A stretch of 64,000 nucleotides of DNA. Source: Escherichia phage vB_EcoM_ESCO25. Below the pieces are notes generated by a model. The model was given only the letters and a program-made list of their open reading frames with translations. It was not told the origin of the DNA and ran no database searches. The DNA lies in sequence record OM386656.1. The stretch is one strand, 5' to 3'. How positions within the stretch are numbered: the stretch's first letter is position 1; the number at the start of each line of letters is the position of its first letter. Positions 25,186-58,231 of this stretch are shown here, in pieces. A program made the position numbers and the translations under genes.

Positions 25186-25464
25186 TTAAAATGGTTCGTT
25201 AGTCTCCATCATATATTCTGCTTCTAGTTCTTCCATGTGCTTTCTAAATTGGAAAGCAATTTCTGCTACAGTTACATTTAAATCTTTTTCAAAAACTTCT
25301 GTAGATCCTTCATAAAAACGAATACCGTCAATTAAAAGCCCTCCGTGGTAATCCCAATCGCTTTCACGAGAAAGTGGATTAGGTTCTTCATAATAGTAAT
25401 CCACCTCCACGACCAAGGCTTTCCCGTTACGAGTGGTGTATTCAAAATCAAAAGTGTTAATCAT
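25186..25464 (-). CDS. hypothetical protein
   Basis: 92-aa ORF between primase-helicase and glycosyltransferase genes. Confidence 0.5.
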   Translation of the reverse strand: MINTFDFEYTTRNGKALVVEVDYYYEEPNPLSRESDWDYHGGLLIDGIRFYEGSTEVFEKDLNVTVAEIAFQFRKHMEELEAEYMMETNEPF

Positions 25465-26408: not shown

Positions 26409-26415
26409 ACTTCAC

Positions 26416-27364
26416 CTACAAACTTTCAATAACCTGGCGTCGCAATTCGTTTGCATCTGCCAGATTATAATGTGTTCGAACATGTTCCGCTAAGAACAAG
26501 CCGCGATCTTCCCGATAGTTCGGATTTCGAAGAAGCTTAACAATTTCGTAATGCCATTCTGCTTTATTCTCTGCATAAGCAACAGCGCGAGCATCTACAG
26601 GGTTAAAATAAGGTAATACCTTAGAACAAACAATCGGAATACCTTTTGCCCCCAGCTTCAAGGATTTTGAGATTACTTTTACAATTATTAAAATCATTAT
26701 CTACCAAAGGAGCTATAGCAATAGCATGACTTTCGTAAACACTCATGTAATTATCTAAATCTTTTACAGCAGCTTTATATTTGGCATTTGGTAAATTTCT
26801 ACGGATCTTAATCCACTCTTGCCCTGTGATACTCTGCGATGCTTCATATCCTGCAATAGTAAGAAGTTCATCATCGAAAGTATTAGAGACTAGTCGTAAA
26901 TCGGGTTCGTGACTAGCACCGCCAGCCCATACAACAGGGGTACCGGATGAACGATCATTTGACAAAGTGAATTGTCCGCTATCAAAAGGAAGTGCATTTC
27001 GGATCACAACAACATTCCTATTTAAGTGACGGATCTTATATGCCAAATATTCCGTAGTCACAATGACCACATCGGCAAGCTTAACCATAGCTACAATAGC
27101 ATGAGTGTTTGACTCATATAAACTTGCTAAATAATGTTCTGGATTAAGTTGGTAGAAATCATCTAAATCTACAACAATCTTAACACCTTGACGTTTCAGG
27201 GACAGAACATATTCTGCCCCTTTAGAATGAATACGGTTAAACACGACAACATCTTTCTTAGGCTGAAAATTATTGTTGTTAAATGGTATAACAATACGAT
27301 GATAATCACAACCACTGTGAGGTTTTGCATCAATTTTCAGTTTAGTCCATTTTTTATTTGACAT
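26416..27364 (-). pseudogene. glycosyltransferase paralog interrupted by a +1 frameshift in a G5/C5 homopolymer (or sequencing error / programmed shift)
   Basis: ORFs 26621..27403 and 26416..26697 together align to the intact paralog; frames switch at C5 run 26649-26653 (G5 on coding strand); four Gs would restore ...EAGAKGIPIVCSK... Confidence 0.6.
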
Positions 27365-28037
27365 GTGCCAGTGCCTCCTCATAAGAAATTCGGATTTTCC
27401 CATTTTTAATATCTTCTAAAGACGCTTTATATTCTTCCCAGTTAATGCCAATAGCAGCTTCTTTCTCTTCTTTTGTCAGATTAGCAAAAGGCATAGGATT
27501 GTTTCCAAAAACATCGTCTGGGTGGATATAAGCCATGATACGAAGTGGACAAGGTATTGCCTGAATGCCCTGATTCAAACCAGCAGCTTTCAAACGGTGT
27601 ACCCATTCAGCATCTTCAAAACCATAGCCGTGAGTGTAAGGGCGGAAATAACCCATCTTCTCAACAACGGCACGAGAATACATTGCAAATTGACACATTG
27701 CAAGTTCCCAGAGAATAACTTCTCCTTTACTCCCAACAACTTTATCTTTGAAATACTCCGGCATACCAAAGAAATCCCATCCTCCAGAGACAGCTTGATC
27801 TACAAAATATGTTTCCCATCCCTCCATGATTGGGTAGCAATCGTCGTCAAAAATAAACCAATAATCATAACCTTCTTCATAAAACTGGTGCATAAGTTCA
27901 TTCCTGGCGTAAGCTACACCTTTACGATCTGGATCGTTGAATACTCGAAAATCTGCATGTGGATCTGTTACAAGATAGTCTTTAAGTGGACGGACACCTA
28001 CAGTGATAACACCCACTCCGATTTTAATATTTTCCAT
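27354..28037 (-). CDS. putative glycosyltransferase, GT-A-like with DDD motif
   Basis: 227-aa ORF; WFIFDDDCYP acidic motif; adjacent to other glycosyltransferase genes. Confidence 0.5.
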   Translation of the reverse strand: MENIKIGVGVITVGVRPLKDYLVTDPHADFRVFNDPDRKGVAYARNELMHQFYEEGYDYWFIFDDDCYPIMEGWETYFVDQAVSGGWDFFGMPEYFKDKVVGSKGEVILWELAMCQFAMYSRAVVEKMGYFRPYTHGYGFEDAEWVHRLKAAGLNQGIQAIPCPLRIMAYIHPDDVFGNNPMPFANLTKEEKEAAIGINWEEYKASLEDIKNGKIRISYEEALAHVK

Positions 28038-28045
28038 TTTCTCTC

Positions 28046-28609
28046 CTAGATAGTTTTACTGTGATCGTGACAGTGTAATAAATGATGTATAGACCGTTGA
28101 GGATTTGTTTGACCTAATCTGTAAATGTGAAACAGATACATTCCCCGCATCAATCCTAACCTTTTTCCTTTTTCATGTAAAGTGCGAGAGAAAATTAGGT
28201 CGAATTGGATAGATTTTTCTTCGAAAGGAATTTCATTCCACAATGATTTTCTAAAAAGCAAAAAGAAACCTGCCAGAGGTGTTCCGAAAGGAACTTCTTC
28301 AACACTCACTTTATGATATTCTCTTGCAATCTTAGCATATTCTATATGGTTTAGAATATTTGGATCATCGTTAATTTGGTTAGAGAAAAGCTGATAACCA
28401 CTACCTAACCTGTTACAAGTTGCACCTATTACATCAAAAGGCGGGTTTGACATAATAAGCTCTTCAAGCATAGATGGTTGATCAGGCAGGAGGAACATTG
28501 TATCGGTATCTCTTAAGCACACCCAACTATCATCTGGAAGAACGGCAATAGCTTCATTGATAGCCTTGCCGATATTTCCTGTCAGATAGGGAGTAATATA
28601 ATAAATCAT
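28046..28609 (-). CDS. putative glycosyltransferase-like protein (DxD motif)
   Basis: 187-aa ORF; CLRDTDTMFL motif; context only. Confidence 0.4.
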   Translation of the reverse strand: MIYYITPYLTGNIGKAINEAIAVLPDDSWVCLRDTDTMFLLPDQPSMLEELIMSNPPFDVIGATCNRLGSGYQLFSNQINDDPNILNHIEYAKIAREYHKVSVEEVPFGTPLAGFFLLFRKSLWNEIPFEEKSIQFDLIFSRTLHEKGKRLGLMRGMYLFHIYRLGQTNPQRSIHHLLHCHDHSKTI

Positions 28610-29932: not shown

Positions 29933-30535
29933 TTATGGACATTCATACCATTCTTTTTTACCACCGAAGGCCATCACCACATCGCAAATATCCAGACCAG
30001 CTTTACCTACACCATATGCTTTCAGCTTCCATTCTCCATCTTCACGAACCAGGGAAGCCACGTGGCAGATTGTGTTGCCAGCTACTTCAGGAGCCAGGAA
30101 GTCAAAATCCAGAATTTCCACATTGCGCTCGGAGTCGAAGATTTTAAGCATACCTTCAGAAGCATGACCAAAACGTTTCAGACCTGTATCATCATCAATG
30201 GTCAGAACAAAGGCAATCTCTTGTGCATCAGGAGAGATTTTAGCCAGAGTAATATCAATCTGCTCCATGCTGCCAGTTCCATCACGAACATCGTCACCAG
30301 CGAAGGTAGAACGTTCAGGATCAAACTTGTTAGCATAGCAAACCAGATGACGTGCAGACAGCATTTCAGGATTGCCAGCGGCATTGTGACGACAAACCAG
30401 TGCACTTACATCCAGATCCAGTTTAGAATCAGATTTCCAAGAGAATTCCAGACGCAGTTCTTTCAGAGCCGGAGCAACTTTCTTCAGGGAAATTTTTTCG
30501 CTAGAACCTTTTTTCAGGGAAATTTTATCAGTCAT
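29933..30535 (-). CDS. terD: TerD-family protein
   Basis: 200-aa ORF; GDDVRDGTGSMEQIDITL matches TerD acidic signature. Confidence 0.8.
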   Translation of the reverse strand: MTDKISLKKGSSEKISLKKVAPALKELRLEFSWKSDSKLDLDVSALVCRHNAAGNPEMLSARHLVCYANKFDPERSTFAGDDVRDGTGSMEQIDITLAKISPDAQEIAFVLTIDDDTGLKRFGHASEGMLKIFDSERNVEILDFDFLAPEVAGNTICHVASLVREDGEWKLKAYGVGKAGLDICDVVMAFGGKKEWYECP

Positions 30536-30550
30536 CTTTTGTCTCCTCTA

Positions 30551-30820
30551 TTATTTAAGTGTAATACCAGTTACAGTCAATTCTACTTCCAAAAGCTTAG
30601 ATGTGTTTTGGATTGATACTAATTGTGCATGATGGTTTAGTTCTACAGCAGAATAATCATTTTCCCCATCATCTACTTTTAAATAAACAATGATTTCACT
30701 AAGGTCTAAACCATTTTCGTCAAATGCATTTTCATAGACGAAAGTATCTCCTACATCCAAATCTTTAATGGTAAGGCATCGTTTATTTACTTTTTGCTCA
30801 TCAATTTCGAAGTTTAACAC
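30551..30820 (-). CDS. small hypothetical protein, paralog of 31842..32138
   Basis: 89-aa ORF; shares layout and C-terminal ...VTGITLK / ...VTNITLKK with neighbour paralog. Confidence 0.5.
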   Translation of the reverse strand: MLNFEIDEQKVNKRCLTIKDLDVGDTFVYENAFDENGLDLSEIIVYLKVDDGENDYSAVELNHHAQLVSIQNTSKLLEVELTVTGITLK

Positions 30821-31049
30821 TTCTTCCTCCTAATGTTATCTCCGGTTTGTATATACGAAGAATTATAGCATTTTCATTTTCTTTGTCAACCCATTCTTCA
30901 TAATCAGGCCATACATGAATCTCTACTCTACTTACAATATCTTCCATTCGCACAGTCCCAATGAAATACTCTTTGAGACTGCGCATAATGAAAGCTTCTC
31001 TCTCGCGCCAATAATTTTCTATGACTTGAGAGGCAAGCTCGTCGATCAT
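30801..31049 (-). CDS. hypothetical protein
   Basis: 82-aa ORF coupled to flanking genes. Confidence 0.45.
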   Translation of the reverse strand: MIDELASQVIENYWREREAFIMRSLKEYFIGTVRMEDIVSRVEIHVWPDYEEWVDKENENAIILRIYKPEITLGGRSVKLRN

Positions 31050-31840
31050 TTTTTAGCACCTACTTTAACAACCCACTCTCCGAACTCTTCAGATAAGAGT
31101 TTGTCATAAAGCTCTGAATCTGTCAAGTCTAAATCTTTAATGCCAATAAAACCAACATTATCATAAGCATTTGCCAGTTCTTTCAGGAAGCCAAACTTCT
31201 CATTACCAACGCCAACCATGAACCAATAAATAGGTTTATTCTTATTCTCTTCAATAAGACGACGAACAGCACTAGGATCACCATTCTCACCATCCGTCTG
31301 GAAGAATACAACACCAGGGGTAACGTCAGCACCTGGTTCAGACACAGCTACAACCTTTTCACGCTCTACAGATACTGTTTCAGTTTTACCAAGCAGACGA
31401 TTAAAGAAGCCTTTCTTTGGAGCCTCCTCTTGTACCACTTGTTTAGTGGTAATATATTTGGTAACAGTGCCAAAATACTCATCGTAGATATCTGCCATTA
31501 CAGGGGCGTAATTTGTTCCACCTCCGATACGAACATTGCGCATACATTTACCAACATAGTCATCGTAAACGTCTGCTGTTGCTGGAGTAAGCTCTTGGGA
31601 ACTCGTATTGAAGGCCCACATATCAATTTGTTGATTATCGTCGAACAGCATACCAAAAGGAAGCAGTTTACCTACAAAATCACTCACTACCCCACTAGAA
31701 TATAGACCATGCATACTACCAGAAATATCTAGAGCACATGCTACACGAAGAACAATCTTACCTTCATTCAGGTTCTTATTCTTTTTCAGAGAGAAAGCAA
31801 GGTTTTCTTGACGTTTTTTCAGGCTGATTTTCTCGGACAT
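31046..31840 (-). CDS. von Willebrand factor A (vWA) domain protein, Ter-associated
   Basis: 264-aa ORF; MIDAS motif ALDISGSM; N-terminal EKISLKK like TerD N-terminus. Confidence 0.7.
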   Translation of the reverse strand: MSEKISLKKRQENLAFSLKKNKNLNEGKIVLRVACALDISGSMHGLYSSGVVSDFVGKLLPFGMLFDDNQQIDMWAFNTSSQELTPATADVYDDYVGKCMRNVRIGGGTNYAPVMADIYDEYFGTVTKYITTKQVVQEEAPKKGFFNRLLGKTETVSVEREKVVAVSEPGADVTPGVVFFQTDGENGDPSAVRRLIEENKNKPIYWFMVGVGNEKFGFLKELANAYDNVGFIGIKDLDLTDSELYDKLLSEEFGEWVVKVGAKK

Positions 31841-31841
31841 A

Positions 31842-32138
31842 TTATTTCTCCTTCTTAAGTGTAATATTGGTAACTTCTAAATCTACTTCCACCATATTTG
31901 TATCTGGCGGGATGCAATGAGTATAGCCTCGTTGTGCTAGTGATCCATTAATACAGATCGCACTGTTTGTGGAATTTTTAATGAACACCAAGTTACGGTA
32001 GGTATCCAACCCTGCGTCTTCATAGGCATCATAATACATGAATGTGGCCCCTATGCCAAGATCTTCGAAAGCAATAGGTAAATCCTGACACTTTTCTTCT
32101 TGAATATTGAATCTAAACACGCATACCTCCTCTACCAA
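31842..32138 (-). CDS. small hypothetical protein, paralog of 30551..30820
   Basis: 98-aa ORF. Confidence 0.5.
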   Translation of the reverse strand: MVEEVCVFRFNIQEEKCQDLPIAFEDLGIGATFMYYDAYEDAGLDTYRNLVFIKNSTNSAICINGSLAQRGYTHCIPPDTNMVEVDLEVTNITLKKEK

Positions 32139-32676
32139 TTTTGAAGCCCAAATCGTAAGCTTCTTTAGTGATCTTTTGCAACTCGCTTATAGGAAGTGTT
32201 ACAAGAGGATCATCTTCTTCAATTTCCATCTTGTCATCTTCTGTTTCAATGAGAGTATTATGCACTTTATGATAAGGGTTGTCAACACGTTTAAACTTAT
32301 TCTTTTCTGTGCTGAAGAAACAATCTGGATCTTCTTCACCATCACCCCAACCTTGATTAGGATCTCTGTCAGATTGTTCTGTAGGGATCTCACCTGTAAA
32401 GTACTCTTCCAGCACCATAGCGATGCCGTCCCTTGGATTTGAGGAATGCATCAAATCACAAACCTTACTCCAATCCATAGCCCAGTCGAACCGTTCACGA
32501 ACGCCATTTTCATCCTCTTTTCCAGAGAAAACACAACCATAACTATCATAGTTGCCATACATCTCTTCAATAACAACACCGTCCTTCAAAAGAAAGAGGT
32601 AGCAAGGTGATCCGTCGAAAGAAGTAGAAAGGGCAGCTTTGCCCGATTCTTTGCACAAAAAGCTAAAACAACCCAT
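32113..32676 (-). CDS. hypothetical acidic protein
   Basis: 187-aa ORF. Confidence 0.45.
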   Translation of the reverse strand: MGCFSFLCKESGKAALSTSFDGSPCYLFLLKDGVVIEEMYGNYDSYGCVFSGKEDENGVRERFDWAMDWSKVCDLMHSSNPRDGIAMVLEEYFTGEIPTEQSDRDPNQGWGDGEEDPDCFFSTEKNKFKRVDNPYHKVHNTLIETEDDKMEIEEDDPLVTLPISELQKITKEAYDLGFKIGRGGMRV

Positions 32677-32879
32677 TACAAACCCTCCTTCAGATTATCA
32701 AGAGCTACAGTGGTTTCACAAAATTCTCCATAAGCTTTATGATGTTCCAGAAAAGCTTCGGGTCCACCCCAATCATTGTCTTGTGTATTCCAGCCATCAA
32801 TAAAAGCATCTTCAATGATTGTGATCAGTTCTTGTCGGGTTAACTGGATAATATTAGGGTCGTTATCGTAGTTAAACAT
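32676..32879 (-). CDS. hypothetical protein
   Basis: 67-aa ORF. Confidence 0.45.
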   Translation of the reverse strand: MFNYDNDPNIIQLTRQELITIIEDAFIDGWNTQDNDWGGPEAFLEHHKAYGEFCETTVALDNLKEGL

Positions 32880-33045
32880 CCTCTTCCTCCTCTAAAATAT
32901 GGAACCCGTAATTACAATAGTCCTGAAAGGTTTCGTGTGCAAGATCTTCTATATCCTCTTGAGACATATCATCTTCAATTTCGATATCCACAACCTCATT
33001 GCATCCACACCAAGCAGTTTCAATATTCACTCGTAATATTTTCAT
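32872..33045 (-). CDS. small acidic hypothetical protein (57 aa)
   Basis: ORF below track cutoff filling the gap; stop overlaps next start. Confidence 0.35.
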   Translation of the reverse strand: MKILRVNIETAWCGCNEVVDIEIEDDMSQEDIEDLAHETFQDYCNYGFHILEEEEDV

Positions 33046-33242
33046 TACTCCTCCTCCTCATTGAAGTCAATATCTGCAAGGAGTTCGAATTTACGGAAGT
33101 TACGACAACCTTCATAAATATAACAATCACGACAAACTGCTAGAACACTTGGGGGATATATGCCTCCCATCGGCGCGAATCGTTTTTCGTCATCATAACG
33201 GACACCAATGTCCTCATCAATTATATAGATACGGATTCTCAT
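33045..33242 (-). CDS. hypothetical protein
   Basis: 65-aa ORF with Cys pair. Confidence 0.45.
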   Translation of the reverse strand: MRIRIYIIDEDIGVRYDDEKRFAPMGGIYPPSVLAVCRDCYIYEGCRNFRKFELLADIDFNEEEE

Positions 33243-34351
33243 TTACCAAGCCCTCGTTTCACAGCAGCTACCATCCCGTCTTCCAAAGATTGAACTTCAT
33301 TAATATAATCAACACGAGCAGCACGGGCTTCCGTATTGATGCGGTTAGTTTCTTCCAACATCTTAACCAAGTTTTCCTGATCGTGACGCAGAGTTTCAAT
33401 ATCCAACACTTGACGGTTAGCCAGTGCTGCTGCTTCGATCTGATTCTGTGTGGCAAGATCGCTACCCAGTTTAATTGCCAGGTTAAATTCATCAAGAACG
33501 TTATTCTGCGTCTCTGCTGCTTTCATTTGACGTAAGCTCTCGATATACATTGAGAAGTTAGCAGAGTAAGCAGGAATAACATTATTTACTATGTTACGCG
33601 CAGATCGCATTAAGCTTGCAGAAACTTTTTGCATACCTTGTACACGCGGTCCCATTTGGACACACAGTAGGCGCAATGCTTTTAAATCTGCAATACGAAT
33701 CTCCAGAAGATCCAAAGTATCTCGGATCACTTGTCGCTGTTCTACTGCATCTTCTGGAAGAGCAGCCAAAGCTTGTTCTTCTTTTTCATAGGTTGCTGTT
33801 AGAAGCTGCATATCTCGGTTCAAACTTGCAGCATATTGTCCAATAGCTTGATGTAGCTTTTCAAGATATACCAAGGAATCTTCTTCTTTGCGAATATCCA
33901 TTTGAAGGTTTTTTACCAACTCTTCAATACGGTTATTAACATTATCAAACTCCCCAAACAGATCTTCTTTCATACCCATAACTTTTTTAATGAGTTTAGT
34001 AATACCCTTGCTTTGTTTAATAGAGTTTGGATCAAGTTGTTTTGCCTGTTTAATCAAAGCTGTGAGTCGTTCACTCATCTGATCGCCTTGATTACTACGT
34101 TGATGTTTTAATACCTCGGCATTCAAGGAACGCAAGGTTGTTCCTGCCTCTGCCCCAATCTCTTCGATCTCCTGTCGGGTCATAGAAGGCAAAACTGGAA
34201 CTTCTTGCGGTGCCGCTGGTGCATAAACAGGACTGGCATCTAACACGCTTGGAGCGAATACAGATTTACTTGCATCTGTTGTTGCAGCAAATACGCTCAT
34301 TTCAGGTTTCTTCTGACAGCCAGTAGCTGCTTTTAAAAATGGACTTGTCAT
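33239..34351 (-). CDS. telA: TelA-like (toxic anion resistance) protein
   Basis: 370-aa helical/coiled-coil ORF; family assignment by resemblance and Ter-cluster context. Confidence 0.55.
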   Translation of the reverse strand: MTSPFLKAATGCQKKPEMSVFAATTDASKSVFAPSVLDASPVYAPAAPQEVPVLPSMTRQEIEEIGAEAGTTLRSLNAEVLKHQRSNQGDQMSERLTALIKQAKQLDPNSIKQSKGITKLIKKVMGMKEDLFGEFDNVNNRIEELVKNLQMDIRKEEDSLVYLEKLHQAIGQYAASLNRDMQLLTATYEKEEQALAALPEDAVEQRQVIRDTLDLLEIRIADLKALRLLCVQMGPRVQGMQKVSASLMRSARNIVNNVIPAYSANFSMYIESLRQMKAAETQNNVLDEFNLAIKLGSDLATQNQIEAAALANRQVLDIETLRHDQENLVKMLEETNRINTEARAARVDYINEVQSLEDGMVAAVKRGLGK

Positions 34352-34938
34352 TCTTCATTCTCCTCTTCTGCATCTCTTATATATGGTGAAACACCGTACT
34401 CTTTAGCTACTTTAACCCAATCGTCCCATTTATACAACCATAATTTTCCTTCGGTCCCTTCTTTATCTGATTTCAACCACATATTAGGTTGCTTACCTGG
34501 GTACATGCGATTAGGTTTACGATTATAACCTCTAACACATCTTGTCGCAAACCTATCTACCAGAACAAGAACATATTTATATTCGTGGTTCAACGGCTCT
34601 TTGGAAGTGGCTTTAGGATTAGCCCCTAACTCTGCTGCCAGTTTTTGCCAATGAGCACCGTGTCTACTAAACTTACCCATACAACCATCAATAGCATGAG
34701 CAATTTCGTGCTTCATTGTATCCACGATCATATCTCTTGTAGAGTTCTTATGCAAGTGCCAATTTACAACAACAATTTTATCTCGGTAGTTGCACCAACC
34801 GAAAGAGTTATTCACTTTGTTTCTAACACAAGCTTTATATCCTGCTTCACGTAACATGTTGTAGTAAACAGGAAAATCTTCTTTTATTTCCTGCATCACT
34901 TCCCACCACAAGAGTTGCAAGTCTCTCTCGGTATACAT
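34348..34938 (-). CDS. SprT-like zinc metallopeptidase
   Basis: 196-aa ORF with HEIAHAIDG HExxH motif and downstream HGAHW. Confidence 0.55.
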   Translation of the reverse strand: MYTERDLQLLWWEVMQEIKEDFPVYYNMLREAGYKACVRNKVNNSFGWCNYRDKIVVVNWHLHKNSTRDMIVDTMKHEIAHAIDGCMGKFSRHGAHWQKLAAELGANPKATSKEPLNHEYKYVLVLVDRFATRCVRGYNRKPNRMYPGKQPNMWLKSDKEGTEGKLWLYKWDDWVKVAKEYGVSPYIRDAEEENEE

Positions 34939-34941
34939 AAC

Positions 34942-35535
34942 TTACACCTTAAAAGTGAAATGCGTGGTCGTGGTTTCAAAATCAGGACCAGATAAACGTG
35001 CACTGAAATCTGAAATATTTGTAATTAAAAAGCTTTTATGCATACCTAACACAGCTACGCTTTCAATATCTTCTACTAACATTTCAATCATGTTAGAAAC
35101 ATGGCTGAACGTAGAGTTTTGTTTTTTGATGGTGTAGAAAGAAAGATTCCCACCTGCTGTATAAGATACCTCTTCAAAATCTTTAATGGTATATTGTGTG
35201 CCATCAGTAAAGAAAATGGTAGCTTTATTAGTAGCACGTTTCTTGTTTTTTGGTCCTTTTTTACGTTTACTGCGAGTAGGCAAACCGTTTGGGAACACCA
35301 TAGCTACAAATTCTTCAGCAGAAACCTCCTTACCGAAATCATAACCATAAGAAACAGCGTCTATAAACTCGTCATCTTCATTTTTAAAATAATGGAAATA
35401 GGGCCAATTTGAAAGATTATCAAGCATCTTATGCTCGTCCACAGCAGAGAATGTATCCCTCAAAGCGCGTGTGATTTGCAAAGCATTAGGCAACCTTTTA
35501 ACACCTACGATGGAAGTACGAATAGAAATTGTCAT
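34942..35535 (-). CDS. hypothetical protein
   Basis: 197-aa ORF. Confidence 0.5.
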   Translation of the reverse strand: MTISIRTSIVGVKRLPNALQITRALRDTFSAVDEHKMLDNLSNWPYFHYFKNEDDEFIDAVSYGYDFGKEVSAEEFVAMVFPNGLPTRSKRKKGPKNKKRATNKATIFFTDGTQYTIKDFEEVSYTAGGNLSFYTIKKQNSTFSHVSNMIEMLVEDIESVAVLGMHKSFLITNISDFSARLSGPDFETTTTHFTFKV

Positions 35536-35549
35536 TGTTTTTCTCCTTA

Positions 35550-35987
35550 TTAACGTCGCTTGCTACGAGATGAACTCTTTTTACTTAAAGGGCTATTGTA
35601 AGATTTACGAGTTGTATAGCTACTATTTGTTTTAAAAGTTTGTCTCGGCTTTTCATAAGTTTTTATCTCTTGTTTAGGCTTACTATAAAAATTAGTTTTC
35701 GGTTTAGGTGTATTATAATGCTTATTAATAATCGTTCTGTTATCGTTATAATCCCCACTGCTACGATTACTACCGCCACTCATCATATGCCCTAACAACA
35801 TACCTGTAGCAAACTCACCAACACCGCTACTACTAGAACCGCCACCATTGTTGATAATAGTTGTATCTCCGTCAGATCCTTGTTGAGCGTATTGTTGAGG
35901 AGGTTGTTGGTATTGTGCAGGATTTGTCTCATCCTCGCAAGCTGTTAAAAAGATACAACCAATTAAAATCAGGGCTAGTTTTTTCAT
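35550..35987 (-). CDS. lipoprotein (lipobox LTAC), Gln/Gly/Ser-rich with basic C-terminus
   Basis: Start moved to ATG 35987 (SD GAGGA); MKKLALILIGCIFLTAC signal peptide. Confidence 0.6.
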   Translation of the reverse strand: MKKLALILIGCIFLTACEDETNPAQYQQPPQQYAQQGSDGDTTIINNGGGSSSSGVGEFATGMLLGHMMSGGSNRSSGDYNDNRTIINKHYNTPKPKTNFYSKPKQEIKTYEKPRQTFKTNSSYTTRKSYNSPLSKKSSSRSKRR

Positions 35988-36174
35988 ATTTGCTTTCCTC
36001 GTTTTGGCTATTAATACATCTGTGTTTGAAATCTCCAGAGAAGCAATAAAGTTGCTCTCCATCTCGGTATAAACTCACTTTACTGCCGTTGATTACGCTT
36101 GTCAATACAAAAATTACAACAAACAACCCTATTGCAAAACAAATATTTTCAAACACAACCAACAAGTATTTCAT
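35929..36174 (-). CDS. small membrane protein (uncertain)
   Basis: 81-aa ORF with hydrophobic N-terminus; overlaps lipoprotein start by about 59 nt. Confidence 0.35.
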   Translation of the reverse strand: MKYLLVVFENICFAIGLFVVIFVLTSVINGSKVSLYRDGEQLYCFSGDFKHRCINSQNEESKYEKTSPDFNWLYLFNSLRG

Positions 36175-36521
36175 TTTAAAAATACCTCATCATCAGTTTC
36201 ATTATCCCAGAAGAACAAGTCCCAACCATTCGGATCATTCCATTTAGCTGCTGGAGAAGTCCATATTTGCTCGATATCAATATTCAAAACTTCACCGTTT
36301 CGTTTTGAAACAGCTTTAGTTAATTCCCAACGGGATACAGGCTCCACTTCCCCTGAACCACTCCCACAACAAGCTACCACATTAGGAGGCAAATTAATTG
36401 GATCTTTGGTCACGATCATAACGCTTACCCCAGGGTAAACTTTTGAAAGATAATCTAAAACGTAATCCACATCACCAGATAAATCCCAAACAAGTTCTTG
36501 AATTTCATCAAAATTACTCAT
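36171..36521 (-). CDS. hypothetical protein
   Basis: 116-aa ORF after terminator hairpin, SD TAGGAGAG. Confidence 0.5.
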   Translation of the reverse strand: MSNFDEIQELVWDLSGDVDYVLDYLSKVYPGVSVMIVTKDPINLPPNVVACCGSGSGEVEPVSRWELTKAVSKRNGEVLNIDIEQIWTSPAAKWNDPNGWDLFFWDNETDDEVFLK

Positions 36522-36532
36522 AAGTCTCTCCT

Positions 36533-36558
36533 ATAAAATAGCCTCCCGAAGGAGGCTC
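36533..36558 (-). terminator. rho-independent terminator after terC
   Basis: On - strand AGCCUCC-UUCG-GGAGGCU then AUUUUAUAG. Confidence 0.6.
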
Positions 36559-36563
36559 ATTTA

Positions 36564-37538
36564 TTAAACAGTAGCTTCTTCTTTTTCAGGGAAGATAAAG
36601 CTTGCAATAACACCAAGAGATAATGTGCCTAGAACAATCATCAGACTTACGTTAGGGGAAATATCATGCGGGAGGAATGACCACTTGGCATGAAGTGTTT
36701 CACCGAACGGGTGATACATAAGTTTAGCACCAACAAACACCAGAACCACAGCAACAGCTTTCTCTAAGTGAACCAGATATTTCACAGCTACACTTAACAC
36801 AAAGAAAAGTGCACGTAAACCAAGAACAGCCATCAGCATTGCAGAATAAACTAGCAGAGGTTCTTGTGTCACACCGATCACAGCCGGAACTGAATCAAAA
36901 GAGAAGACAATATCTGTAAGCTCAATAACAAACACACAAAGAAGAGCAGGAGTTGCATATTTAATACCATTCTTAATGGTGATGAACTTTTCACCATCCA
37001 GTGCATTGTGCACAGGCAGAACTTTACCTACTAAACGAACAGCCCAATGTTTAGAGTAATCAATATCCTCTTCTTTGTCACCACCTTTGATGATAGCCAC
37101 GGCAGACCAAGCTACAATCAAACCGAACAACACTTGGACCGACCAATGAAGGTTAAACAAAGCGGTCCCTGCTGCAACAAAAATACCTCGGAAGACAATG
37201 GCTCCTGCAATCCCCCAAAGTAGAATCTTATGTTGGAGATGTGTGCTCTTAATTCCAAAGCTTGCAAAAATTGCCATGAACACCATTAGGTTATCTACAG
37301 AAAGACTCTTTTCCAACACATAGCCACTTAGGAAAAGCGCGGCAAACTCTTTACCATGTTCTACCCAAATGAATGCGTAATACCCTAAAGCTAAAGCAAT
37401 CCAAAAAACAGACCAAAGCAAAGCAGATTTAATTCCAATTTCTTTATTCTCTTTATGACCAAAGAAATCGATACCAATAGACAATGCTAAAATACCAACT
37501 AAAACAACTACATCAATAATTGGGAAACCGAGTTGCAT
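36564..37538 (-). CDS. terC: TerC-family integral membrane protein
   Basis: 324-aa polytopic ORF with LEKSLSVDNLMVF motif; own promoter-hairpin unit upstream. Confidence 0.8.
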   Translation of the reverse strand: MQLGFPIIDVVVLVGILALSIGIDFFGHKENKEIGIKSALLWSVFWIALALGYYAFIWVEHGKEFAALFLSGYVLEKSLSVDNLMVFMAIFASFGIKSTHLQHKILLWGIAGAIVFRGIFVAAGTALFNLHWSVQVLFGLIVAWSAVAIIKGGDKEEDIDYSKHWAVRLVGKVLPVHNALDGEKFITIKNGIKYATPALLCVFVIELTDIVFSFDSVPAVIGVTQEPLLVYSAMLMAVLGLRALFFVLSVAVKYLVHLEKAVAVVLVFVGAKLMYHPFGETLHAKWSFLPHDISPNVSLMIVLGTLSLGVIASFIFPEKEEATV

Positions 37539-37555
37539 TCTTTTCTCCTCTCTTT

Positions 37556-37614
37556 GCGGGGAACTATTCCCCGCTTCATGTGATATATCTTACTCTTTTT
37601 AAGAACTATGTCAA
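37556..37614 (-). promoter_or_regulatory. promoter plus 5' stem-loop unit driving terC (same family as right-end array)
   Basis: On - strand TTGACA, 16-nt spacer, TAAGAT, 12 nt, then GCGGGGAA-TAG-TTCCCCGC, then SD AGAGAGGAG and terC ATG. Confidence 0.6.
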
Positions 37615-37617
37615 CAC

Positions 37618-37839
37618 TTATTTTGTTGAATGAGAGGAAAAGATTCCTCGTAATACCGCCAAAATAAACGAAACACAAACCACGGTCCAGAAGGTTACTG
37701 GGACAGTGATATCTGCATGACCCATAACTTCAGCAACATAGTTGTAAGCCAGCAACAGTAACCAAGCTGGAATCAAACTAAGCATAAAAGCAATAACAAA
37801 AAAGCTTACCACTGCAACAATACCTGCAAAAACACCCAT
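37618..37839 (-). CDS. small membrane protein (two TM helices)
   Basis: 73-aa hydrophobic ORF, SD AAGAGGAG. Confidence 0.5.
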   Translation of the reverse strand: MGVFAGIVAVVSFFVIAFMLSLIPAWLLLLAYNYVAEVMGHADITVPVTFWTVVCVSFILAVLRGIFSSHSTK

Positions 37840-37851
37840 ACTAATCTCCTC

Positions 37852-38325
37852 TTAAAGTTTATAAATAGTCACATCGTGACCTGTTTTTACTAAAGTTTCT
37901 TCAATCATCACTTGGATGATAGCCCAATTACCTCCGGCATGTCCCGCTCCAATCATAGGTAAACCGATCTTACATTTTTGGTCACGGAGAAGCAAATCAT
38001 TAGCCATAGCTATTAGTGCATCGTAAAGTGCATCATAGTCCAACTGACGACCTTTAGCATTGTATCCGTAACGGTATTGCCCGTATAGATTATATACCAA
38101 AGGGTCTGATTGTTCGTCTGGCACCCCTAAACTAAAAGAACCTAACTTACTTTGATCACCAGCCATTGTGTCTAAATCTGCCGCATATGCATAAGGGAAT
38201 GCTCGTTTAATTTGCGGAGCAATTCCTGCTCCCATATTACACATACAATTGCAACAATGAGCAATAACAGTTACTTCACCTGCTTTAGCGGCATCAATAA
38301 GATTACCTGTTTTCATTTTAAGCAT
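37852..38325 (-). CDS. macro-domain protein (ADP-ribose binding/hydrolase-like)
   Basis: Start moved to ATG 38325 (SD AAGGAG); TGNLIDAAKAGEVTVIAHCCNCMCNMGAGIA and IGLPMIGAGHAGG parallel macro-domain motifs. Confidence 0.6.
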   Translation of the reverse strand: MLKMKTGNLIDAAKAGEVTVIAHCCNCMCNMGAGIAPQIKRAFPYAYAADLDTMAGDQSKLGSFSLGVPDEQSDPLVYNLYGQYRYGYNAKGRQLDYDALYDALIAMANDLLLRDQKCKIGLPMIGAGHAGGNWAIIQVMIEETLVKTGHDVTIYKL

Positions 38326-38338
38326 TTTTAGCTCCTTA

Positions 38339-39166
38339 TTACAGAATGTGTTGTTTTGTGTAACGATCCAAGAATTCAAAGTTTTCAGCATACTTTGAAA
38401 TTCGGTTGTAACCTTCTCCCAAACATCCGAAGAAAAGTTGCTCTACATAGTAGTGTGGCAATTGGCTAAGAATGATTTTGAAGTCTTCGTGATTTTGGCC
38501 CATAAGATACTTAATAGGACGAACAAGACACTGTGCATCACGTTCTTCATTAATCATTTTAACAAACGCTTCTGGTGTATTGATGTAGTTAAAATTCAGT
38601 TTAGCTTCAGTATCTGCTTGATTACCTTCATATTTTGCAAAATACAAGAAGTAAACATCATTTTTAACTTGATTTTCATCAAGAATCTCAATCAGTTTGT
38701 CTTCATGAGTTCCGGTGATATTTACATCATCAATGAACACAAGCTTCTTATCACCCCAGAATTCTTTGTTGCAGTAGAATGTATCCCCATCAATAAGTTT
38801 CTTACGACTAGCTTTATCCAAGAAACCATAATCGTTGATATAGCTAACTTTACGATGAATAATATCCAGTTCTGCTGAACGACCTTGATCATATTGTGCT
38901 TGCAACATATTAAAGTAATTAATAAAATGATCTGTCATCATTGTTGCAGCATTGTGCACATGGTTATAAGGAGAAGGGATGATAACAAATTGTTCCCCAA
39001 TATGTTTCATTGCCACTTGAGCAAAAAACTGAAGTACCAATTCTTTACCCATACGACGCGCAGCTTGGTTACTACCAAATTTCAATTTTGAATAGTCTTT
39101 GATATCAAAAGTAGCAGTTTCCAGGTCATCAAATTTATTTGCAAAAATTTGAGTTTGATTACGCAT
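38339..39166 (-). CDS. phosphoribosyltransferase-like protein (Ter-associated PRTase)
   Basis: 275-aa ORF; KLVFIDDVNITGTH resembles PRPP-binding motif. Confidence 0.5.
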   Translation of the reverse strand: MRNQTQIFANKFDDLETATFDIKDYSKLKFGSNQAARRMGKELVLQFFAQVAMKHIGEQFVIIPSPYNHVHNAATMMTDHFINYFNMLQAQYDQGRSAELDIIHRKVSYINDYGFLDKASRKKLIDGDTFYCNKEFWGDKKLVFIDDVNITGTHEDKLIEILDENQVKNDVYFLYFAKYEGNQADTEAKLNFNYINTPEAFVKMINEERDAQCLVRPIKYLMGQNHEDFKIILSQLPHYYVEQLFFGCLGEGYNRISKYAENFEFLDRYTKQHIL

Positions 39167-39815
39167 TTACAATTTCTCCTCTTTTAAGTTTCTCTAGTAA
39201 GTCGTTAGGGTTCTTAATATGACAGAAGTTAATCCCTATGTCAACACATTTACCATCAAATTCTTCGCTGTCCCCAACATGTAAAATCTCTTCAGCCTTC
39301 AAAGGAATGCTTGAATATGTGGCGGTCCTAACAAAGAATCTAGGATCTGGTTTACATAACAGATGTTCGTCTGAAAAATGCATAAATTCAAAACAATTCC
39401 AACTGTCGAACATACAAGCACGACGCAAAATATCCCCAGATATAAAATTAGTATTGCTTTTAATACTAAGATCATATTTACCAGACAAGTATAGCAAACA
39501 AACTGGCAAATCTAAAGCGATATGTGGAGGAAATTTAAGAAACCATTGCTCACACTCAAAACGCATTTGTGCAGATTCTACAGGGGTTAAACCTATCTTT
39601 CTTCCCAACATATTCCATGCATATGCTACACCTTCTGCACACCCATTTAGTGCAGCATTATCCATAATTTCTTTGGCATCTTTATATGCTTCTTTTGCCG
39701 CACGTTCAGACATTCTACCATATGTAGCAATAGTGTGCGTACGTGCATCTGCATAGTTTTGATTGGCAGAAATAAGAGTATTCCATACATCAAAAGAAAT
39801 ATGTTTTATTGTCAT
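39159..39815 (-). CDS. HAD-superfamily-like hydrolase (atypical motif I)
   Basis: Start moved to ATG 39815; HISFDVWNTL is non-canonical motif I; C-terminal VGDSEEFDG like HAD motif IV. Confidence 0.4.
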   Translation of the reverse strand: MTIKHISFDVWNTLISANQNYADARTHTIATYGRMSERAAKEAYKDAKEIMDNAALNGCAEGVAYAWNMLGRKIGLTPVESAQMRFECEQWFLKFPPHIALDLPVCLLYLSGKYDLSIKSNTNFISGDILRRACMFDSWNCFEFMHFSDEHLLCKPDPRFFVRTATYSSIPLKAEEILHVGDSEEFDGKCVDIGINFCHIKNPNDLLEKLKRGEIVNA

Positions 39816-39816
39816 A

Positions 39817-40422
39817 CTAGGCCCACCACGCATCAAGATTTAAGTTACTGTCTACCACAACTTGTTCTATGTGGTAGCCTTTTATCTGTATCCCACTGTT
39901 CAAGAGCATATCATATGCTTCATTGAAACGCAACTTATCTTCTGCGGAATATAAGCGAGCATTGTAAAATCGGTAATCAAGTTCTTCAGCATTAGAAGAA
40001 ATACGGAAGAAGTTTGTTTCTACTTCAGGATCACTTGCTGAAGTTTTAATGTGAACTTCTCCGTAATTTTCTTTGCTTAGATCCATGAAAAGAACACAGG
40101 CAACATGTTTAAACATTCGTTCCAGTTTGTAACGAACAACATTGAAACCTGCGTTCTCAAGTTTTTCTACACATTGCAACATTAACGTAGTGTCGAGATC
40201 GCTTTGATACTTTGTTAACATACGATCACGTTGAGACTTTGTATCCCGATGTAAATCAATTGTTGTGCATTTGGCACCAATGATCTTAGCTGCTTTCATC
40301 AACTCTTCAGAACTAACGTTAGATAAAGTAAGATGAAAATGGGCTTTCCACACTTTTTTAGCAGGGACACCAAAAGATTTATCCCCACTATTCGGCATGT
40401 TGACTACTACACTATGTTGCAT
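39817..40422 (-). CDS. hypothetical protein
   Basis: 201-aa ORF. Confidence 0.5.
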   Translation of the reverse strand: MQHSVVVNMPNSGDKSFGVPAKKVWKAHFHLTLSNVSSEELMKAAKIIGAKCTTIDLHRDTKSQRDRMLTKYQSDLDTTLMLQCVEKLENAGFNVVRYKLERMFKHVACVLFMDLSKENYGEVHIKTSASDPEVETNFFRISSNAEELDYRFYNARLYSAEDKLRFNEAYDMLLNSGIQIKGYHIEQVVVDSNLNLDAWWA

Positions 40423-42994: not shown

Positions 42995-43024
42995 CAAAAA
43001 AGGCGCAAAGTGCGCCTTTAAGTT
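42995..43024 (-). terminator. rho-independent terminator (usable in both directions)
   Basis: AGGCGCA-AAG-TGCGCCT stem; on - strand followed by UUUUUU; A-run on the other side. Confidence 0.7.
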
Positions 43025-51314: not shown

Positions 51315-51461
51315 TTAAACCTCCTCGTAGTAAGGCAAAGCTTTGATCAGCTGTTCTGAAGTGCCATTCTCTGTCCATGTAACCCCGTTGTCAAGAGAAA
51401 CATACCCTTTCTTATCGATAAATTTACGGAGACAACCAGTGAACTTGTTTTTGTAGATCAT
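51315..51461 (-). CDS. small hypothetical protein (48 aa)
   Basis: ORF below track cutoff exactly filling the gap; ATGA overlap upstream, TAAATG junction downstream. Confidence 0.4.
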   Translation of the reverse strand: MIYKNKFTGCLRKFIDKKGYVSLDNGVTWTENGTSEQLIKALPYYEEV

Positions 51462-57512: not shown

Positions 57513-57692
57513 ATGGCACGTTTAGCAGATCATGAAATCTTTAAACCTATTCTGAACCACTATGATGAACTTAAAGCAGTGTTGGATTGTTATAGAGAGG
57601 ATGAAGAACGTTTGGAAGTCAATCTTAAGATAGTTCTGATGAAAGCTTTTCAAGACGGGCAAGCTAAAGTTTTAGAAGGCATGAAAAAATGA
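57513..57692 (+). CDS. small hypothetical protein
   Basis: Start at ATG 57513 (SD AAGGAG); 59 aa. Confidence 0.45.
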   Translation: MARLADHEIFKPILNHYDELKAVLDCYREDEERLEVNLKIVLMKAFQDGQAKVLEGMKK

Positions 57693-58231
57693 GAATAACT
57701 GATGAATATGTATTCTTCTTTTCACATAAAGATGTGTTTAGTAATTGGTATATTGCACCCTTTACAGAAACTGAACCAGGTTACAATGAGACTTTCTGTT
57801 GTGTTGAGCAATATATGATGTGGCGTAAGGCTTTGCTGTTCAAGGATCATGCGATTGCAGCAGCTATCCTTGATCACTCAACTATACGTGACAACGAGAG
57901 GAAACAAGCATACTACAAACGTATGGGTCGAGCGGTATCTGGTTTTAATAATGATATGTGGGAAGAGAACCGTGAGCGTATTGTTATGCGAGGCTTATGC
58001 TTGAAATATGTACAGAATCCAGATTTGTATGCAGACTTACACCTTTACCAATACAAAACGTTTGTTGAAGCAAGTCCTTACGATAAGGTTTACGGTATTG
58101 GAATGGGAATGTATGAACCAGGGGTGCTAAACCCTGCTACCTGGAAAGGGCAGAATCTTTTAGGAAAATATCATAATAAACTGATCGAAATACTTTTCCC
58201 AGACAAAATACCGCAAAGACGATATTTGTGA
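57689..58231 (+). CDS. NADAR-domain (YbiA-like) protein
   Basis: 180-aa ORF; FFFSHKDVFSNWY, CVEQYMMWRKALLF and EASPYDKVYGIGMG match NADAR conserved blocks. Confidence 0.75.
   Translation: MRITDEYVFFFSHKDVFSNWYIAPFTETEPGYNETFCCVEQYMMWRKALLFKDHAIAAAILDHSTIRDNERKQAYYKRMGRAVSGFNNDMWEENRERIVMRGLCLKYVQNPDLYADLHLYQYKTFVEASPYDKVYGIGMGMYEPGVLNPATWKGQNLLGKYHNKLIEILFPDKIPQRRYL

Follow-up and report, generated by a model that had tools for sequence, protein, structure and literature searches.

What does a small macrodomain protein do for a phage of Escherichia coli, and does it work together with a NADAR protein encoded elsewhere in the same genome? An earlier note on this DNA had claimed a macro-domain ORF at 37852-38325 and a NADAR-domain ORF at 57689..58231, had joined the two into a toolkit for reversing ADP-ribosylation, and had suggested counter-defence against host toxins of the DarT type. 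The window, i.e. the whole stretch of 64 kb that was analysed, comes from a Phapecoctavirus (phAPEC8 group) and shares 99.9% identity with E. coli phages already published; scans of it for tRNA genes and Rfam families found nothing. Both ORFs are real genes, and the product of the first is a 157-aa macrodomain of the ALC1/TARG1/DarG class. From its homology to tested proteins and the lack of detectable NARP genes we infer, at roughly even chances, an AdfM-like role as an 'orphan antitoxin' against DarT2, with regard to both its substrate and the defence system that it would counter.

The macrodomain gene and its neighbours

The longest mechanical ORF at the macro locus spans 37852..38391 on the minus strand. 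We nevertheless regard the ATG at 38325 as the credible start, because it is suitably spaced from an AAGGAG motif, because it leaves a 13-nt gap from the stop of the upstream PRTase_3 gene where a start at 38391 would create a 53-nt overlap, and because the identical 474-nt CDS is annotated in GenBank and RefSeq records of near-identical phages (labelled there as 'macro domain-containing protein' or 'phosphatase'). The gene is probably part of a unit that reads nrdD-nrdG-...-HAD-PRTase_3-macro-TM-terC and lies between two terminator-like hairpins (Table 1). Promoter-scan counts do not exceed the shuffled expectation, and we therefore draw no conclusions about promoters. The 73-aa hydrophobic protein stays beside the macro gene in Stephanstirmvirinae loci.

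Table 1. Features of the macrodomain and NADAR loci (window coordinates)
Feature	Position	Strand	Remarks
Terminator-like hairpin	36540..36557	-	7 bp, 5 GC; immediately follows terC; probably bounds the unit downstream; consensus scan only
TerC-family membrane protein	36564..37538	-	last gene of the unit
73-aa hydrophobic protein, predicted membrane	37618..37839	-	GAGGAG and ATG closely after the macro stop
Macrodomain gene	37852..38325	-	157 aa + stop; ALC1/TARG1-class fold, SCO6735/Tk.4-type active site
Shine-Dalgarno AAGGAG	38332..38337	-	6 nt 5' of the ATG at 38325; supports the short start
PRTase_3 (ComF-like type I phosphoribosyltransferase)	38339..39166	-	directly upstream of macro; PRPP motif DDVxITGTHE invariant
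HAD-family phosphatase	39159..39836	-	conserved PRTase_3 partner; public records start at 39815
Terminator-like hairpin	42999..43019	-	9 bp, 5 GC; 5' of nrdD; probably bounds the unit upstream; consensus scan only
NADAR gene, YbiA subfamily	57689..58231	+	180 aa; Glu40 and Lys47 in EQYxxxxK, Glu127 in last-strand 'VEAS'

Fold and active site of the macro protein

The Pfam model PF01661 matches the macro protein marginally, yet above its curated threshold (23.0 bits against a cut-off of 22, E 7.9e-5). A phmmer search of the PDB gave SCO6735 (5e3b) as the best match at 1.1e-12, with BT1257 (1.7e-8), DarG (5m31, 9e-7) and TARG1 (3.5e-6) further down, and the protein matches PHROG 335 at 1e-55, a family spread over about 2,900 phage genomes. 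Its AlphaFold model (pLDDT 93.1, pTM 0.90) predicts a three-layer alpha/beta/alpha fold with two glycine-rich ADPR-binding loops, the conserved MGAGIA (31-36) and PMIGAGHAGG (123-132). The best Foldseek matches of this model are TARG1, BT1257, DarG, Poa1p and SCO6735 (E 3e-12 to 1e-8), with a probability of 1.00 and TM of 0.75-0.87 to TARG1, DarG and Poa1p. The strong ribosome-binding site, PHROG 335 and the phmmer, AlphaFold and Foldseek results thus bear out the macro-domain ORF first proposed from the letters of the sequence.

The active-site set comprises His23, Asn26, Gly32-x-Gly34, Gln83 and Pro123-x-x-Gly126-x-Gly128. The catalytic pair of TARG1 is absent from it: Gln83 stands where TARG1 has Lys84 and DarG has Lys80, and Asp125 of TARG1 corresponds to Ala130. 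Asn26 and Gln83 align with Asn27 and Gln85 of SCO6735; they are invariant in 41 homologues of the macro protein and are found in 53/53 and 51/53 family representatives, respectively. SCO6735 is a thymidine-ADP-ribose DNA hydrolase which cleaves the thymidine-ADPr made by DarT, and whose activity is wholly lost in Q85A and nearly wholly lost in N27S (PMC9411070). Since this Asn/Gln pair is itself catalytic (PMC9411070), the macro enzyme is predicted to be competent but of another mechanistic type than TARG1 and DarG. The earlier note had let its proposal stand or fall with the catalytic residues, and here the outcome is divided, with the Lys/Asp of the TARG1/DarG type gone and the Asn/Gln of the SCO6735 type present.

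The likeness to SCO6735 includes a flexible basic loop after the glutamine (residues 84-96 here, pLDDT 77-84, basic residues present). On the other hand, SCO6735 is a cellular actinobacterial protein (Streptomyces coelicolor) with ~28% identity over the Foldseek alignment, and its Val25, the proposed backbone holder of the catalytic water, is Cys24 in the macro protein. DarG belongs to the same macrodomain class (Foldseek E about 1e-10) and shares with PhiKZ gp104 the reaction predicted here, the removal of thymidine-linked ADPr, but both have Lys (FPTK) at the catalytic position taken by Gln83. DarG also has a second, DarT-binding domain which the single-domain macro protein lacks, and the NCBIfam DarG model NF048014 scored 36 bits against a cut-off of 250, with the macro part alone matching; similarity to gp104 was barely detectable by pairwise BLAST (E 0.012). 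At pI 5.9 the macro protein is slightly acidic, and its charge reveals no obvious surface for DNA binding. We rejected pI as a discriminator between DNA and metabolite substrates, given that T4 Tk.4 has an equal pI and that NARP-linked family members range from 4.5 to 9.0.

The NADAR gene and the proposed toolkit

The second ORF of the earlier note held up equally well. Its product matches Pfam PF08719 (122 bits, E 3.4e-35) and NCBIfam TIGR02464, the YbiA/riboflavin-intermediate N-glycosidase type (114.9 bits, cut-off 73.7), and its best PDB match is the Phytophthora NADAR 8bau (1.2e-12). The catalytic Glu40, Lys47 and Glu127 align with residues of 8bau (for their roles, see PMC11543638 and PMC11257639); together with the profile matches, they place the protein in the YbiA subfamily. 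Its closest relatives are found in rV5-like phages, large Gram-positive myophages and jumbo phages, and one NADAR from a jumbo-phage NAD island is 33% identical to it.

The natural comparison is with phage T4, where two proteins of these folds act against the two types of DarTG. The T4 macrodomain Tk.4 (AdfM) neutralises DarTG2, and a clean tk.4 knockout sensitises T4 (bioRxiv 10.1101/2025.11.20.689424), while the T4 NADAR gp30.3 (AdfN) neutralises DarTG1 (PMC11257639); E. coli strains carry DarTG1 and DarTG2 (PMC11543638, PMC11257639). Our NADAR protein shares with gp30.3 the fold and a Glu and Lys seven residues apart (E36/K43 in AdfN). However, BLASTP detected no pairwise similarity between the two (E = 4), and the last-strand residue is Glu in the window protein, as in the YbiA type, where it is His in the gp30.3 type and Asp in the DarT1-linked type (PMC11125620, PMC11543638); the absence of pairwise similarity and this Glu in place of His show that it is not an AdfN orthologue. 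It would most likely perform an analogous N-glycosidic cleavage on ADP-ribose linked to guanine (DarT1- or ScARP-type). In vitro, hydrolysis of guanine-ADPr has been seen with each of the four NADAR subtypes tested, yet not all NADARs active in this way rescue cells from DarT1; E. coli YbiA itself hydrolyses G-ADPr in vitro without rescuing cells (PMC11125620).

We also asked whether gene position ties the two proteins together, using 80 viral loci for locus counts and 36 macro clusters at 70% identity for cluster counts. In this genome, 19.4 kb separate the macro from the NADAR gene, and the two differ in strand and in gene block. Their homologues are adjacent in 16/80 loci, always within 1.3 kb, but this adjacency collapses to a single cluster out of 36; it thus characterises the lineage of one jumbo-phage NAD island and is not a general rule. 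Being unlinked here and adjacent in just that one cluster, the two genes cannot be paired by position. The idea of a joint toolkit thus retains its precedent in the T4 macrodomain and NADAR pair, whereas nothing in this genome links the two genes and the NADAR is not AdfN-like.

Candidate functions of the macro protein

Phages have recently been shown to strip or process the ADP-ribose that bacterial defence systems produce, with enzymes of the macrodomain and NADAR families, and this genome, with both enzymes intact, adds one more case of a known trick. Two relatives of the macro protein have established roles. Tk.4 is, like our protein, a stand-alone phage macrodomain of ~155 aa with the motifs AH.CNC / MG.G / NLY.Q / P.IG.G in common; it carries the RefSeq label 'phosphatase' as well, and T4 is likewise an E. 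coli myophage without NARP genes. The identity is 37% over 124 residues (E 2e-21, local) or 33% globally. Adpp of Vibrio phage Gary is an ADPR-1''-phosphate phosphatase needed against aRES, where it works with the NAD+-rebuilding NARP1 enzymes Adps and Namat, all three genes being required (bioRxiv 10.64898/2026.01.28.702374). Our protein is 40% identical (E 1e-25) to the near-identical protein of Vibrio phage AG74 and 45% identical to the NARP1-associated macro of PaoP5. Given identities of 33-37% (Tk.4) and 40% (Adpp), the two roles cannot be told apart by sequence. The earlier suggestion of counter-defence against DarT-type toxins was right in direction, considering the T4 AdfM/AdfN pair and the homology to Tk.4, but the likeness to Adpp leaves the substrate unsettled at the level of sequence.

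We favour an AdfM-like role because NARP genes were not found in the phage: a tblastn search of the whole Phapecoctavirus genome at E <= 0.01 detected no NAMPT/Namat, no Prs/Adps and no NMNAT. The macro protein would be made alongside replication and nucleotide-metabolism genes, and its gene indeed shares a block on the minus strand with those for DNA polymerase, primase/helicase and NrdD/G, which fits an action on replicating DNA. It would then strip the ADP-ribose added by DarT2 from thymidines in single-stranded phage DNA, such that replication could proceed. Chemically, the enzyme would remove a group on C1'' of the distal ribose to yield free ADP-ribose, presumably with Asn26 and Gln83 positioning the substrate as in SCO6735 rather than with the Lys/Asp of TARG1. 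The more distant phage macrodomain gp104 of PhiKZ strips DarT2 modifications from DNA in vitro (PMC13309987), while DNA de-ADP-ribosylation by Tk.4 is an inference from genetics and not from biochemistry (bioRxiv 10.1101/2025.11.20.689424). As only 8/36 macro clusters adjoin NARP genes, a role independent of NARP must be common in the family.

Some observations sit less comfortably with an AdfM-like role. By sequence, the window protein is slightly closer to NARP1-associated macros than to Tk.4. Neighbour-joining, without support values, places Tk.4 at the base of the tree as the most divergent branch of the family, puts the window protein into a bush which also holds Adpp, and scatters the NARP-linked members. 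The loop after the glutamine is shorter in Tk.4 and has no basic residues, the neighbourhood of the tk.4 gene (the tk-vs region) differs from our locus, and the genetic evidence belongs to Tk.4 only. As for the tree, given its scatter and the lack of support values, we did not assign the protein to an AdfM or an Adpp branch.

The strongest competing explanation, which we nonetheless hold to be unlikely, is that the protein is an Adpp-type phosphatase converting ADPR-1''-phosphate from RES-domain NADases to ADPR, thereby feeding the rebuilding of NAD+ or clearing a toxic metabolite; aRES is known in E. coli, Klebsiella and Enterobacter. The macro of Gary is a proven ADPR-1P phosphatase, the Adps-macro-Namat operon of AG74 shares 95.6% DNA identity with the Gary operon, and our protein has all active-site motifs in common with the AG74 protein. 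Like Adpp, it would act in counter-defence through freed ADPR. His23 moreover aligns with His23 of Poa1p, which was probed by mutation in PDB 6lfs. The gene context is also suggestive at the level of the family, with NAMPT within 10 kb of the macro gene in 31/80 viral loci and Prs in 30/80 (7-8/36 clusters at 70% identity), and with a macro and NAMPT/Prs arrangement in PaoP5. Yet the Adpp gene lies between those of Adps and Namat, on both of which its product depends, and the window phage has neither; the neighbours of its macro gene are PRTase_3, HAD and TerC instead of a NARP1 operon. In Gary, loss of any one of the three genes abolished counter-defence, and a phosphatase alone is therefore insufficient (bioRxiv 10.64898/2026.01.28.702374). 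T4, likewise without NARP1, turns its homologue against DarTG2 (bioRxiv 10.1101/2025.11.20.689424).

These two roles have implications for annotation. PHROG 335, labelled 'phosphatase', holds two experimentally distinct counter-defence roles with the same active-site motifs, and function can therefore not be transferred within it by homology alone; a usable discriminator is gene context, namely the presence or absence of NARP1. If the AdfM-like role is correct, the 'orphan antitoxin' idea, by which phages take along the half of a toxin-antitoxin pair that erases ADP-ribosylation, would apply to the phAPEC8 group, used in phage-therapy collections, as well as to T4-like and nucleus-forming phages, and phAPEC8-group phages would be predicted to resist DarTG2 and perhaps guanine-modifying ARTs. 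In the literature we found no direct tests of phAPEC8-like phages on DarTG hosts.

A housekeeping function for the phage's own NAD+ consumers is more doubtful. The protein would then act on O-acetyl-ADPR, on targets ADP-ribosylated by the phage sirtuin, or on ADPR-1''-P / Appr>p from RNA repair. Genes for an RNA ligase and for a SIR2 homologue (33% identical to the SIR2 of the jumbo island, E 3e-29) are indeed present in the genome. Among the viral loci, the macro gene has SIR2 at a distance of 2-3.4 kb in 21/80 and an RNA ligase within 10 kb in 13/80, and the ALC1 class offers precedents in Poa1p, which functions in tRNA splicing (bioRxiv 10.64898/2026.01.28.702374), and in SCO6735, with its activity on protein and DNA (PMC9411070). 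In this genome, however, the macro gene is some 100 kb from SIR2 and some 67 kb from the RNA ligase, the SIR2 linkage is confined to 2/36 clusters after clustering, and there is no Tpt1/KptA among the annotated genes.

It is improbable that the macro protein works on proteins, undoing the mono-ADP-ribosylation that host toxins or defence ARTs install, in the way TARG1 or SCO6735 act on Glu/Asp-linked ADPr. These closest solved relatives, which resemble the macro protein in structure, do act on proteins as well as DNA (PMC9411070), but the Lys84/Asp125 pair with which TARG1 carries out its ester-linked mechanism is absent, and phage members of the family have so far been without any link to a protein substrate.

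A comparably small probability goes to the idea of a non-homologous pathway, made up of PRTase_3, HAD and macro, which rebuilds or diverts an ADP-ribose-derived or NAD-related nucleotide, or, in a milder version, of one enzyme doing both the AdfM and the Adpp jobs. In the subfamily of phAPEC8 and Justusliebigvirus, the macro gene stands as an insertion in a HAD-PRTase_3-TerC operon. The macrodomain's part in such a pathway would be to provide free ADPR or to remove the protection from a 1''-substituted ribose; the outcome would be one more 'NARP-like' route, or else a nucleoside signal made by the phage and tied to the enigmatic Ter proteins, whereas in the milder version one macro enzyme would counter two unrelated defence systems. 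In at least seven other phage lineages, members of the macro family stand beside NAMPT/Namat, a phosphoribosyltransferase of a different fold, and a Prs-like kinase. PRTase_3 is not a disguised Adps (no BLASTP similarity), and the 205-aa protein and HAD_SAK_2 of the jumbo island are not homologous to the 201-aa protein and HAD of the window.

Least probable is that the macro protein serves in the neighbouring HAD-PRTase_3/Ter module, processing a ribosylated intermediate in its predicted 'nucleoside-like metabolite' pathway: although the HAD, PRTase_3, macro, 73-aa TM and TerC genes are packed on one strand with gaps of at most about 13 nt between two hairpins, in an order that recurs in the sister genus Justusliebigvirus (with a macro of just 49% identity) and in 5 IMG/VR loci, 3/3 distant large-phage loci have the HAD-PRTase_3 pair but no macro gene, and we rejected this as the main reading on that ground. 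PRTase_3 is, furthermore, near the widespread macro family in 3/36 clusters only, and HAD, PRTase_3 and the 201-aa protein match only high-numbered PHROGs (13415, 14393, 22504). The HAD-PRTase_3/Ter genes are a module separate from the macro function, and in 2/3 of the distant loci the pair is embedded in the order TelA - vWA/TerF - TerC - HAD - PRTase_3 - TerD. PRTase_3 has no solved relative by sequence; its model bears a loose likeness to HGPRT/ComF-type type I PRTases (TM 0.3-0.4).

Gene calls and genomic setting

Over the 6 kb surrounding the macro-domain gene, identity to Escherichia phages of the genus Phapecoctavirus (the phAPEC8/ESCO13 group, genomes of ~150 kb, subfamily Stephanstirmvirinae) is 99.9%, so that the public annotations of those phages can be read directly for the window. 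An earlier note had proposed, from sequence alone, that a macro-domain ORF and a NADAR-domain ORF form a toolkit for reversing ADP-ribosylation, possibly in counter-defence; both ORFs are real. Mechanically, the macro ORF extends to 38391, but the ATG start at 38325 is borne out by an AAGGAG at 38337-38332 (minus strand) 6 nt 5' of it, by the gap to the upstream gene (13 nt behind its stop, as against a 53-nt overlap with a start at 38391) and by public records, in which the identical 474-nt CDS is annotated.

Features of the window discussed in the text
Feature	Position	Strand	Remark
Glycosyltransferase genes	25464-28609		four consecutive (RefSeq)
TerD	29933-30535	minus	
TelA	33239-34351	minus	
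SprT-like metalloprotease	34348-34938	minus	
Hairpin bounding the gene run	36557-36540		strong
TerC	36564-37538	minus	
Macro protein	37852-38325	minus	157 aa
PRTase_3	38339-39166	minus	
HAD	39159-39836	minus	partner of PRTase_3
Hairpin bounding the gene run	43019-42999		strong
CapR-homology protein	55680-57140	plus	486 aa
NADAR protein	57689-58231	plus	180 aa
Repeat region	58232-59040		AT-rich direct repeats

Predicted active sites of the two domains

The macro assignment is firm by phmmer against PDB sequences (SCO6735, 1.1e-12; also BT1257, DarG and TARG1), by a match to PHROG 335 at 1e-55 and by an AlphaFold model with 41 homologues as input (pLDDT 93.1), whose best structural matches are TARG1, BT1257, DarG, Poa1p and SCO6735; by Pfam it is marginal (23.0 bits against a cut-off of 22). 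The earlier note had named missing catalytic residues as grounds for refuting its proposal. Measured against TARG1 and DarG they are missing, with Gln83 in place of the catalytic Lys (TARG1 K84, DarG K80) and Ala130 in place of TARG1 Asp125; the Asn/Gln pair of SCO6735 is present. SCO6735, the closest solved relative, likewise has neither Lys nor Asp, yet it strips DarT-made ADP-ribose from DNA thymidine better than DarG or TARG1, and it loses all activity in the Q85A mutant and nearly all in N27S (PMC9411070). Asn26 and Gln83 occupy the N27/Q85 positions and are invariant among the 41 homologues, down to 46% identity; in a wider family sample they are found in 53/53 and 51/53 representatives respectively, together with His23, Gly32/34, Pro123 and Gly126. 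Because of this placement and conservation, the enzyme looks catalytically competent, of an Asn/Gln type.

The NADAR assignment is backed by Pfam (122 bits), NCBIfam TIGR02464 (114.9 bits against a cut-off of 73.7) and PDB 8bau (1.2e-12). The protein is of the YbiA type, with no pairwise similarity to T4 gp30.3/AdfN, the NADAR that counters DarTG1; its relatives occur in rV5-like, Staphylococcus, Listeria, Bacillus and jumbo phages (718 records). Glu40 and Lys47 have the same spacing as AdfN E36/K43, which are needed for AdfN function (PMC11257639), and Glu127, in the last strand, is the counterpart of E125 in the Phytophthora enzyme, a residue in contact with the distal ribose (PMC11543638). 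Each of the four NADAR subtypes assayed in vitro can hydrolyse guanine-ADPr, though protection of cells against DarT1 is limited to some of them (PMC11125620); catalytic competence of the window NADAR is therefore supported.

Candidate roles of the macro protein

A 2022 survey found Macro and NADAR domains to be frequent in large myophages, to co-occur above chance, and NADARs to lie near NAD+ salvage genes (PMC9503650); since then, experiments in T4, PhiKZ and Gary have tied the domains to specific roles in counter-defence. The window gene is a further, uncharacterised representative of this known family, and our literature search found no published test of it in the phAPEC8 group. What is added here is an active site of the Asn/Gln type in place of a Lys-based one, and a phage in which no genes of NARP, the NAD+-rebuilding pathway, were found.

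By tblastn, the family occurs in 2,929 of 50,697 phage records (T4-like, FelixO1-like, rV5-like, Pakpunavirus, T5-like Vibrio and jumbo phages), with tested functions for two members, T4 Tk.4 and Gary Adpp. Tk.4 was the sole T4 gene that a transposon screen picked out as a specific requirement on a DarTG2 host; T4 becomes sensitive to DarTG2 when the gene, since named adfM, is cleanly knocked out (bioRxiv 10.1101/2025.11.20.689424). Tk.4 and the window protein share 37% identity (E 2e-21). PhiKZ gp104, a Lys-type macrodomain that clears DarT2 modifications in vitro and shields chimalliviruses (PMC13309987), is more distant, with barely detectable similarity. The Gary protein, encoded between Adps and Namat of NARP1, is an ADPR-1''-phosphate phosphatase that enables NARP1 to overcome aRES, a RES-domain NADase of E. 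coli, Klebsiella and Enterobacter, with all three genes required (bioRxiv 10.64898/2026.01.28.702374). The AG74 operon is 95.6% identical to that of Gary, and its macro protein 40% identical to ours.

We rank an AdfM-like, anti-DarTG2 role first, giving it about an even chance, ahead of an Adpp-like phosphatase role, which we consider unlikely, because Adpp by itself is insufficient in Gary and T4, without NARP, deploys its homologue against DarTG2. The two chemistries are related, each freeing ADPR from a C1''-substituted ribose. Tk.4, the Adpp-type protein, the PaoP5 protein and the window protein have the same motifs, and in a neighbour-joining tree NARP-linked members are scattered, with Tk.4 basal. 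Sequence therefore does not tell the substrate of this protein; with two tested functions inside one homology family, annotation by homology alone is unsafe.

Gene content was searched in a close relative's complete genome plus the window, where NAMPT/Namat, Prs/Adps and NMNAT gave no match at E <= 0.01. A SIR2-family protein (DE16 record 20116-20805, locus L101; 33% identity to a jumbo NAD-island sirtuin, E 3e-29) and an RNA ligase (DE16 record 51110-52027, L102 1110-2027; 40% identity to Vibrio phage Rnl) lie outside the window, far from the macro gene. The four NAD/ADPR-related genes (macro, NADAR, SIR2, RNA ligase) are thus dispersed, with no NAD+ synthesis genes found.

Across 80 IMG/VR loci with a macro homologue (10 kb each side, tblastn with reference proteins; 36 clusters at 70% macro identity), neighbours within 10 kb were NAMPT (31 loci, 7 clusters), Prs (30, 8), SIR2 (21, 2), Nudix-NMNAT (19, 1), RNA ligase (13, 7) and PRTase_3 (5, 3); NADAR was found at 16 loci in one cluster, always within 1.3 kb. 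By cluster counts, linkage to NAD+-rebuilding genes is therefore a recurrent but minority pattern, and macro-NADAR linkage is real and confined to one jumbo-phage lineage. This lineage has the order NAMPT - NADAR - x - macro - HAD_SAK_2 ... SIR2 ... Prs and homologues of both window proteins (macro 47-51% identity; NADAR 33%, E 3e-29).

The conserved NAD island (L002-L005, L032-L050 and related loci, contigs up to 368 kb) reads AAA - Nudix/NMNAT - Glu_synthase - NAMPT - NADAR - (205 aa) - macro - HAD_SAK_2 - ... - SIR2 - DUF3127 - ... - Prs - PhyH - Thg1, joining NARP2-type synthesis genes and three ADPR-processing enzymes in a single block.

Neighbouring genes and regions

The macro gene belongs to a closely spaced minus-strand run (nrdD, nrdG, 63-aa ORF, 201-aa ORF, HAD, PRTase_3, macro, 73-aa membrane protein, terC), with TelA, an SprT-like protease and TerD further downstream. 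PRTase_3 has an invariant PRPP motif, DDVxITGTHE, and, by sequence, no relative of known structure; the AlphaFold model (pLDDT 92.9) shows a type I PRTase core, loosely HGPRT/ComF-like (TM 0.3-0.4), and an extra C-terminal helical domain. PRTase_3 and HAD (38339-39836) would together yield a nucleoside, from an unspecified base. A dual AdfM/Adpp enzyme, or a pathway of PRTase_3, HAD and macro handling an ADPR-derived nucleotide, seems to us improbable even taken jointly.

The sister genus, with a macro only 49% identical, preserves the order HAD - PRTase_3 - macro - TerC. This conservation raised the idea of macro in a Ter-associated 'nucleoside-like metabolite' pathway; this is unlikely, since three distant large-phage loci have HAD-PRTase_3 without macro (two as TelA - vWA/TerF - TerC - HAD - PRTase_3 - TerD), the PHROG matches of HAD, PRTase_3 and the 201-aa protein are all to high-numbered families whereas macro belongs to a widespread one, and nothing links PRTase_3 to ADPR. 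We regard the macro gene as a lineage-specific insertion into the Ter/HAD-PRTase_3 operon.

The tellurite-resistance-type set as a whole (TerD, TelA, SprT-like, TerC, HAD-PRTase_3 pair) covers 29933-40422 on the minus strand; the macro-less order recurs in unrelated, jumbo-phage-looking contigs of 200-350 kb (L096, L100). The glycosyltransferase genes adjoin primase/helicase and DNA polymerase genes, and a complete dTDP-rhamnose pathway (RfbA/B/C/D-like) lies outside the window (DE16 record 33007-36285). Together they could serve to decorate DNA, or a surface structure, with sugars; if phage DNA is modified, this would bear on DarT sensitivity.

GC skew switches sign at ~16.8 kb and ~52 kb, where gene orientation also flips: plus-strand tail genes to 16841, minus-strand replication and metabolism genes to ~51.9 kb, then small plus-strand genes, with opposed promoter-like sites in the divergent region at 51.9-52.0 kb. 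Two small genes 5' of the NADAR gene, the CapR-homology protein ('endonuclease' in RefSeq) carries five Cys-rich repeats (PF21817, E 1.4e-28). The approximately 0.8 kb 3' of the NADAR gene hold no convincing ORF and no tRNA or Rfam match; this stretch may have a regulatory or origin-like function where it borders a series of small early genes, each spaced individually. Within it are AT-rich direct repeats (72-nt copies at 58450 and 58588 that are 82% identical, and shorter sub-repeats of 29 nt) and, at 58730-58781, an inverted repeat of 23 nt.
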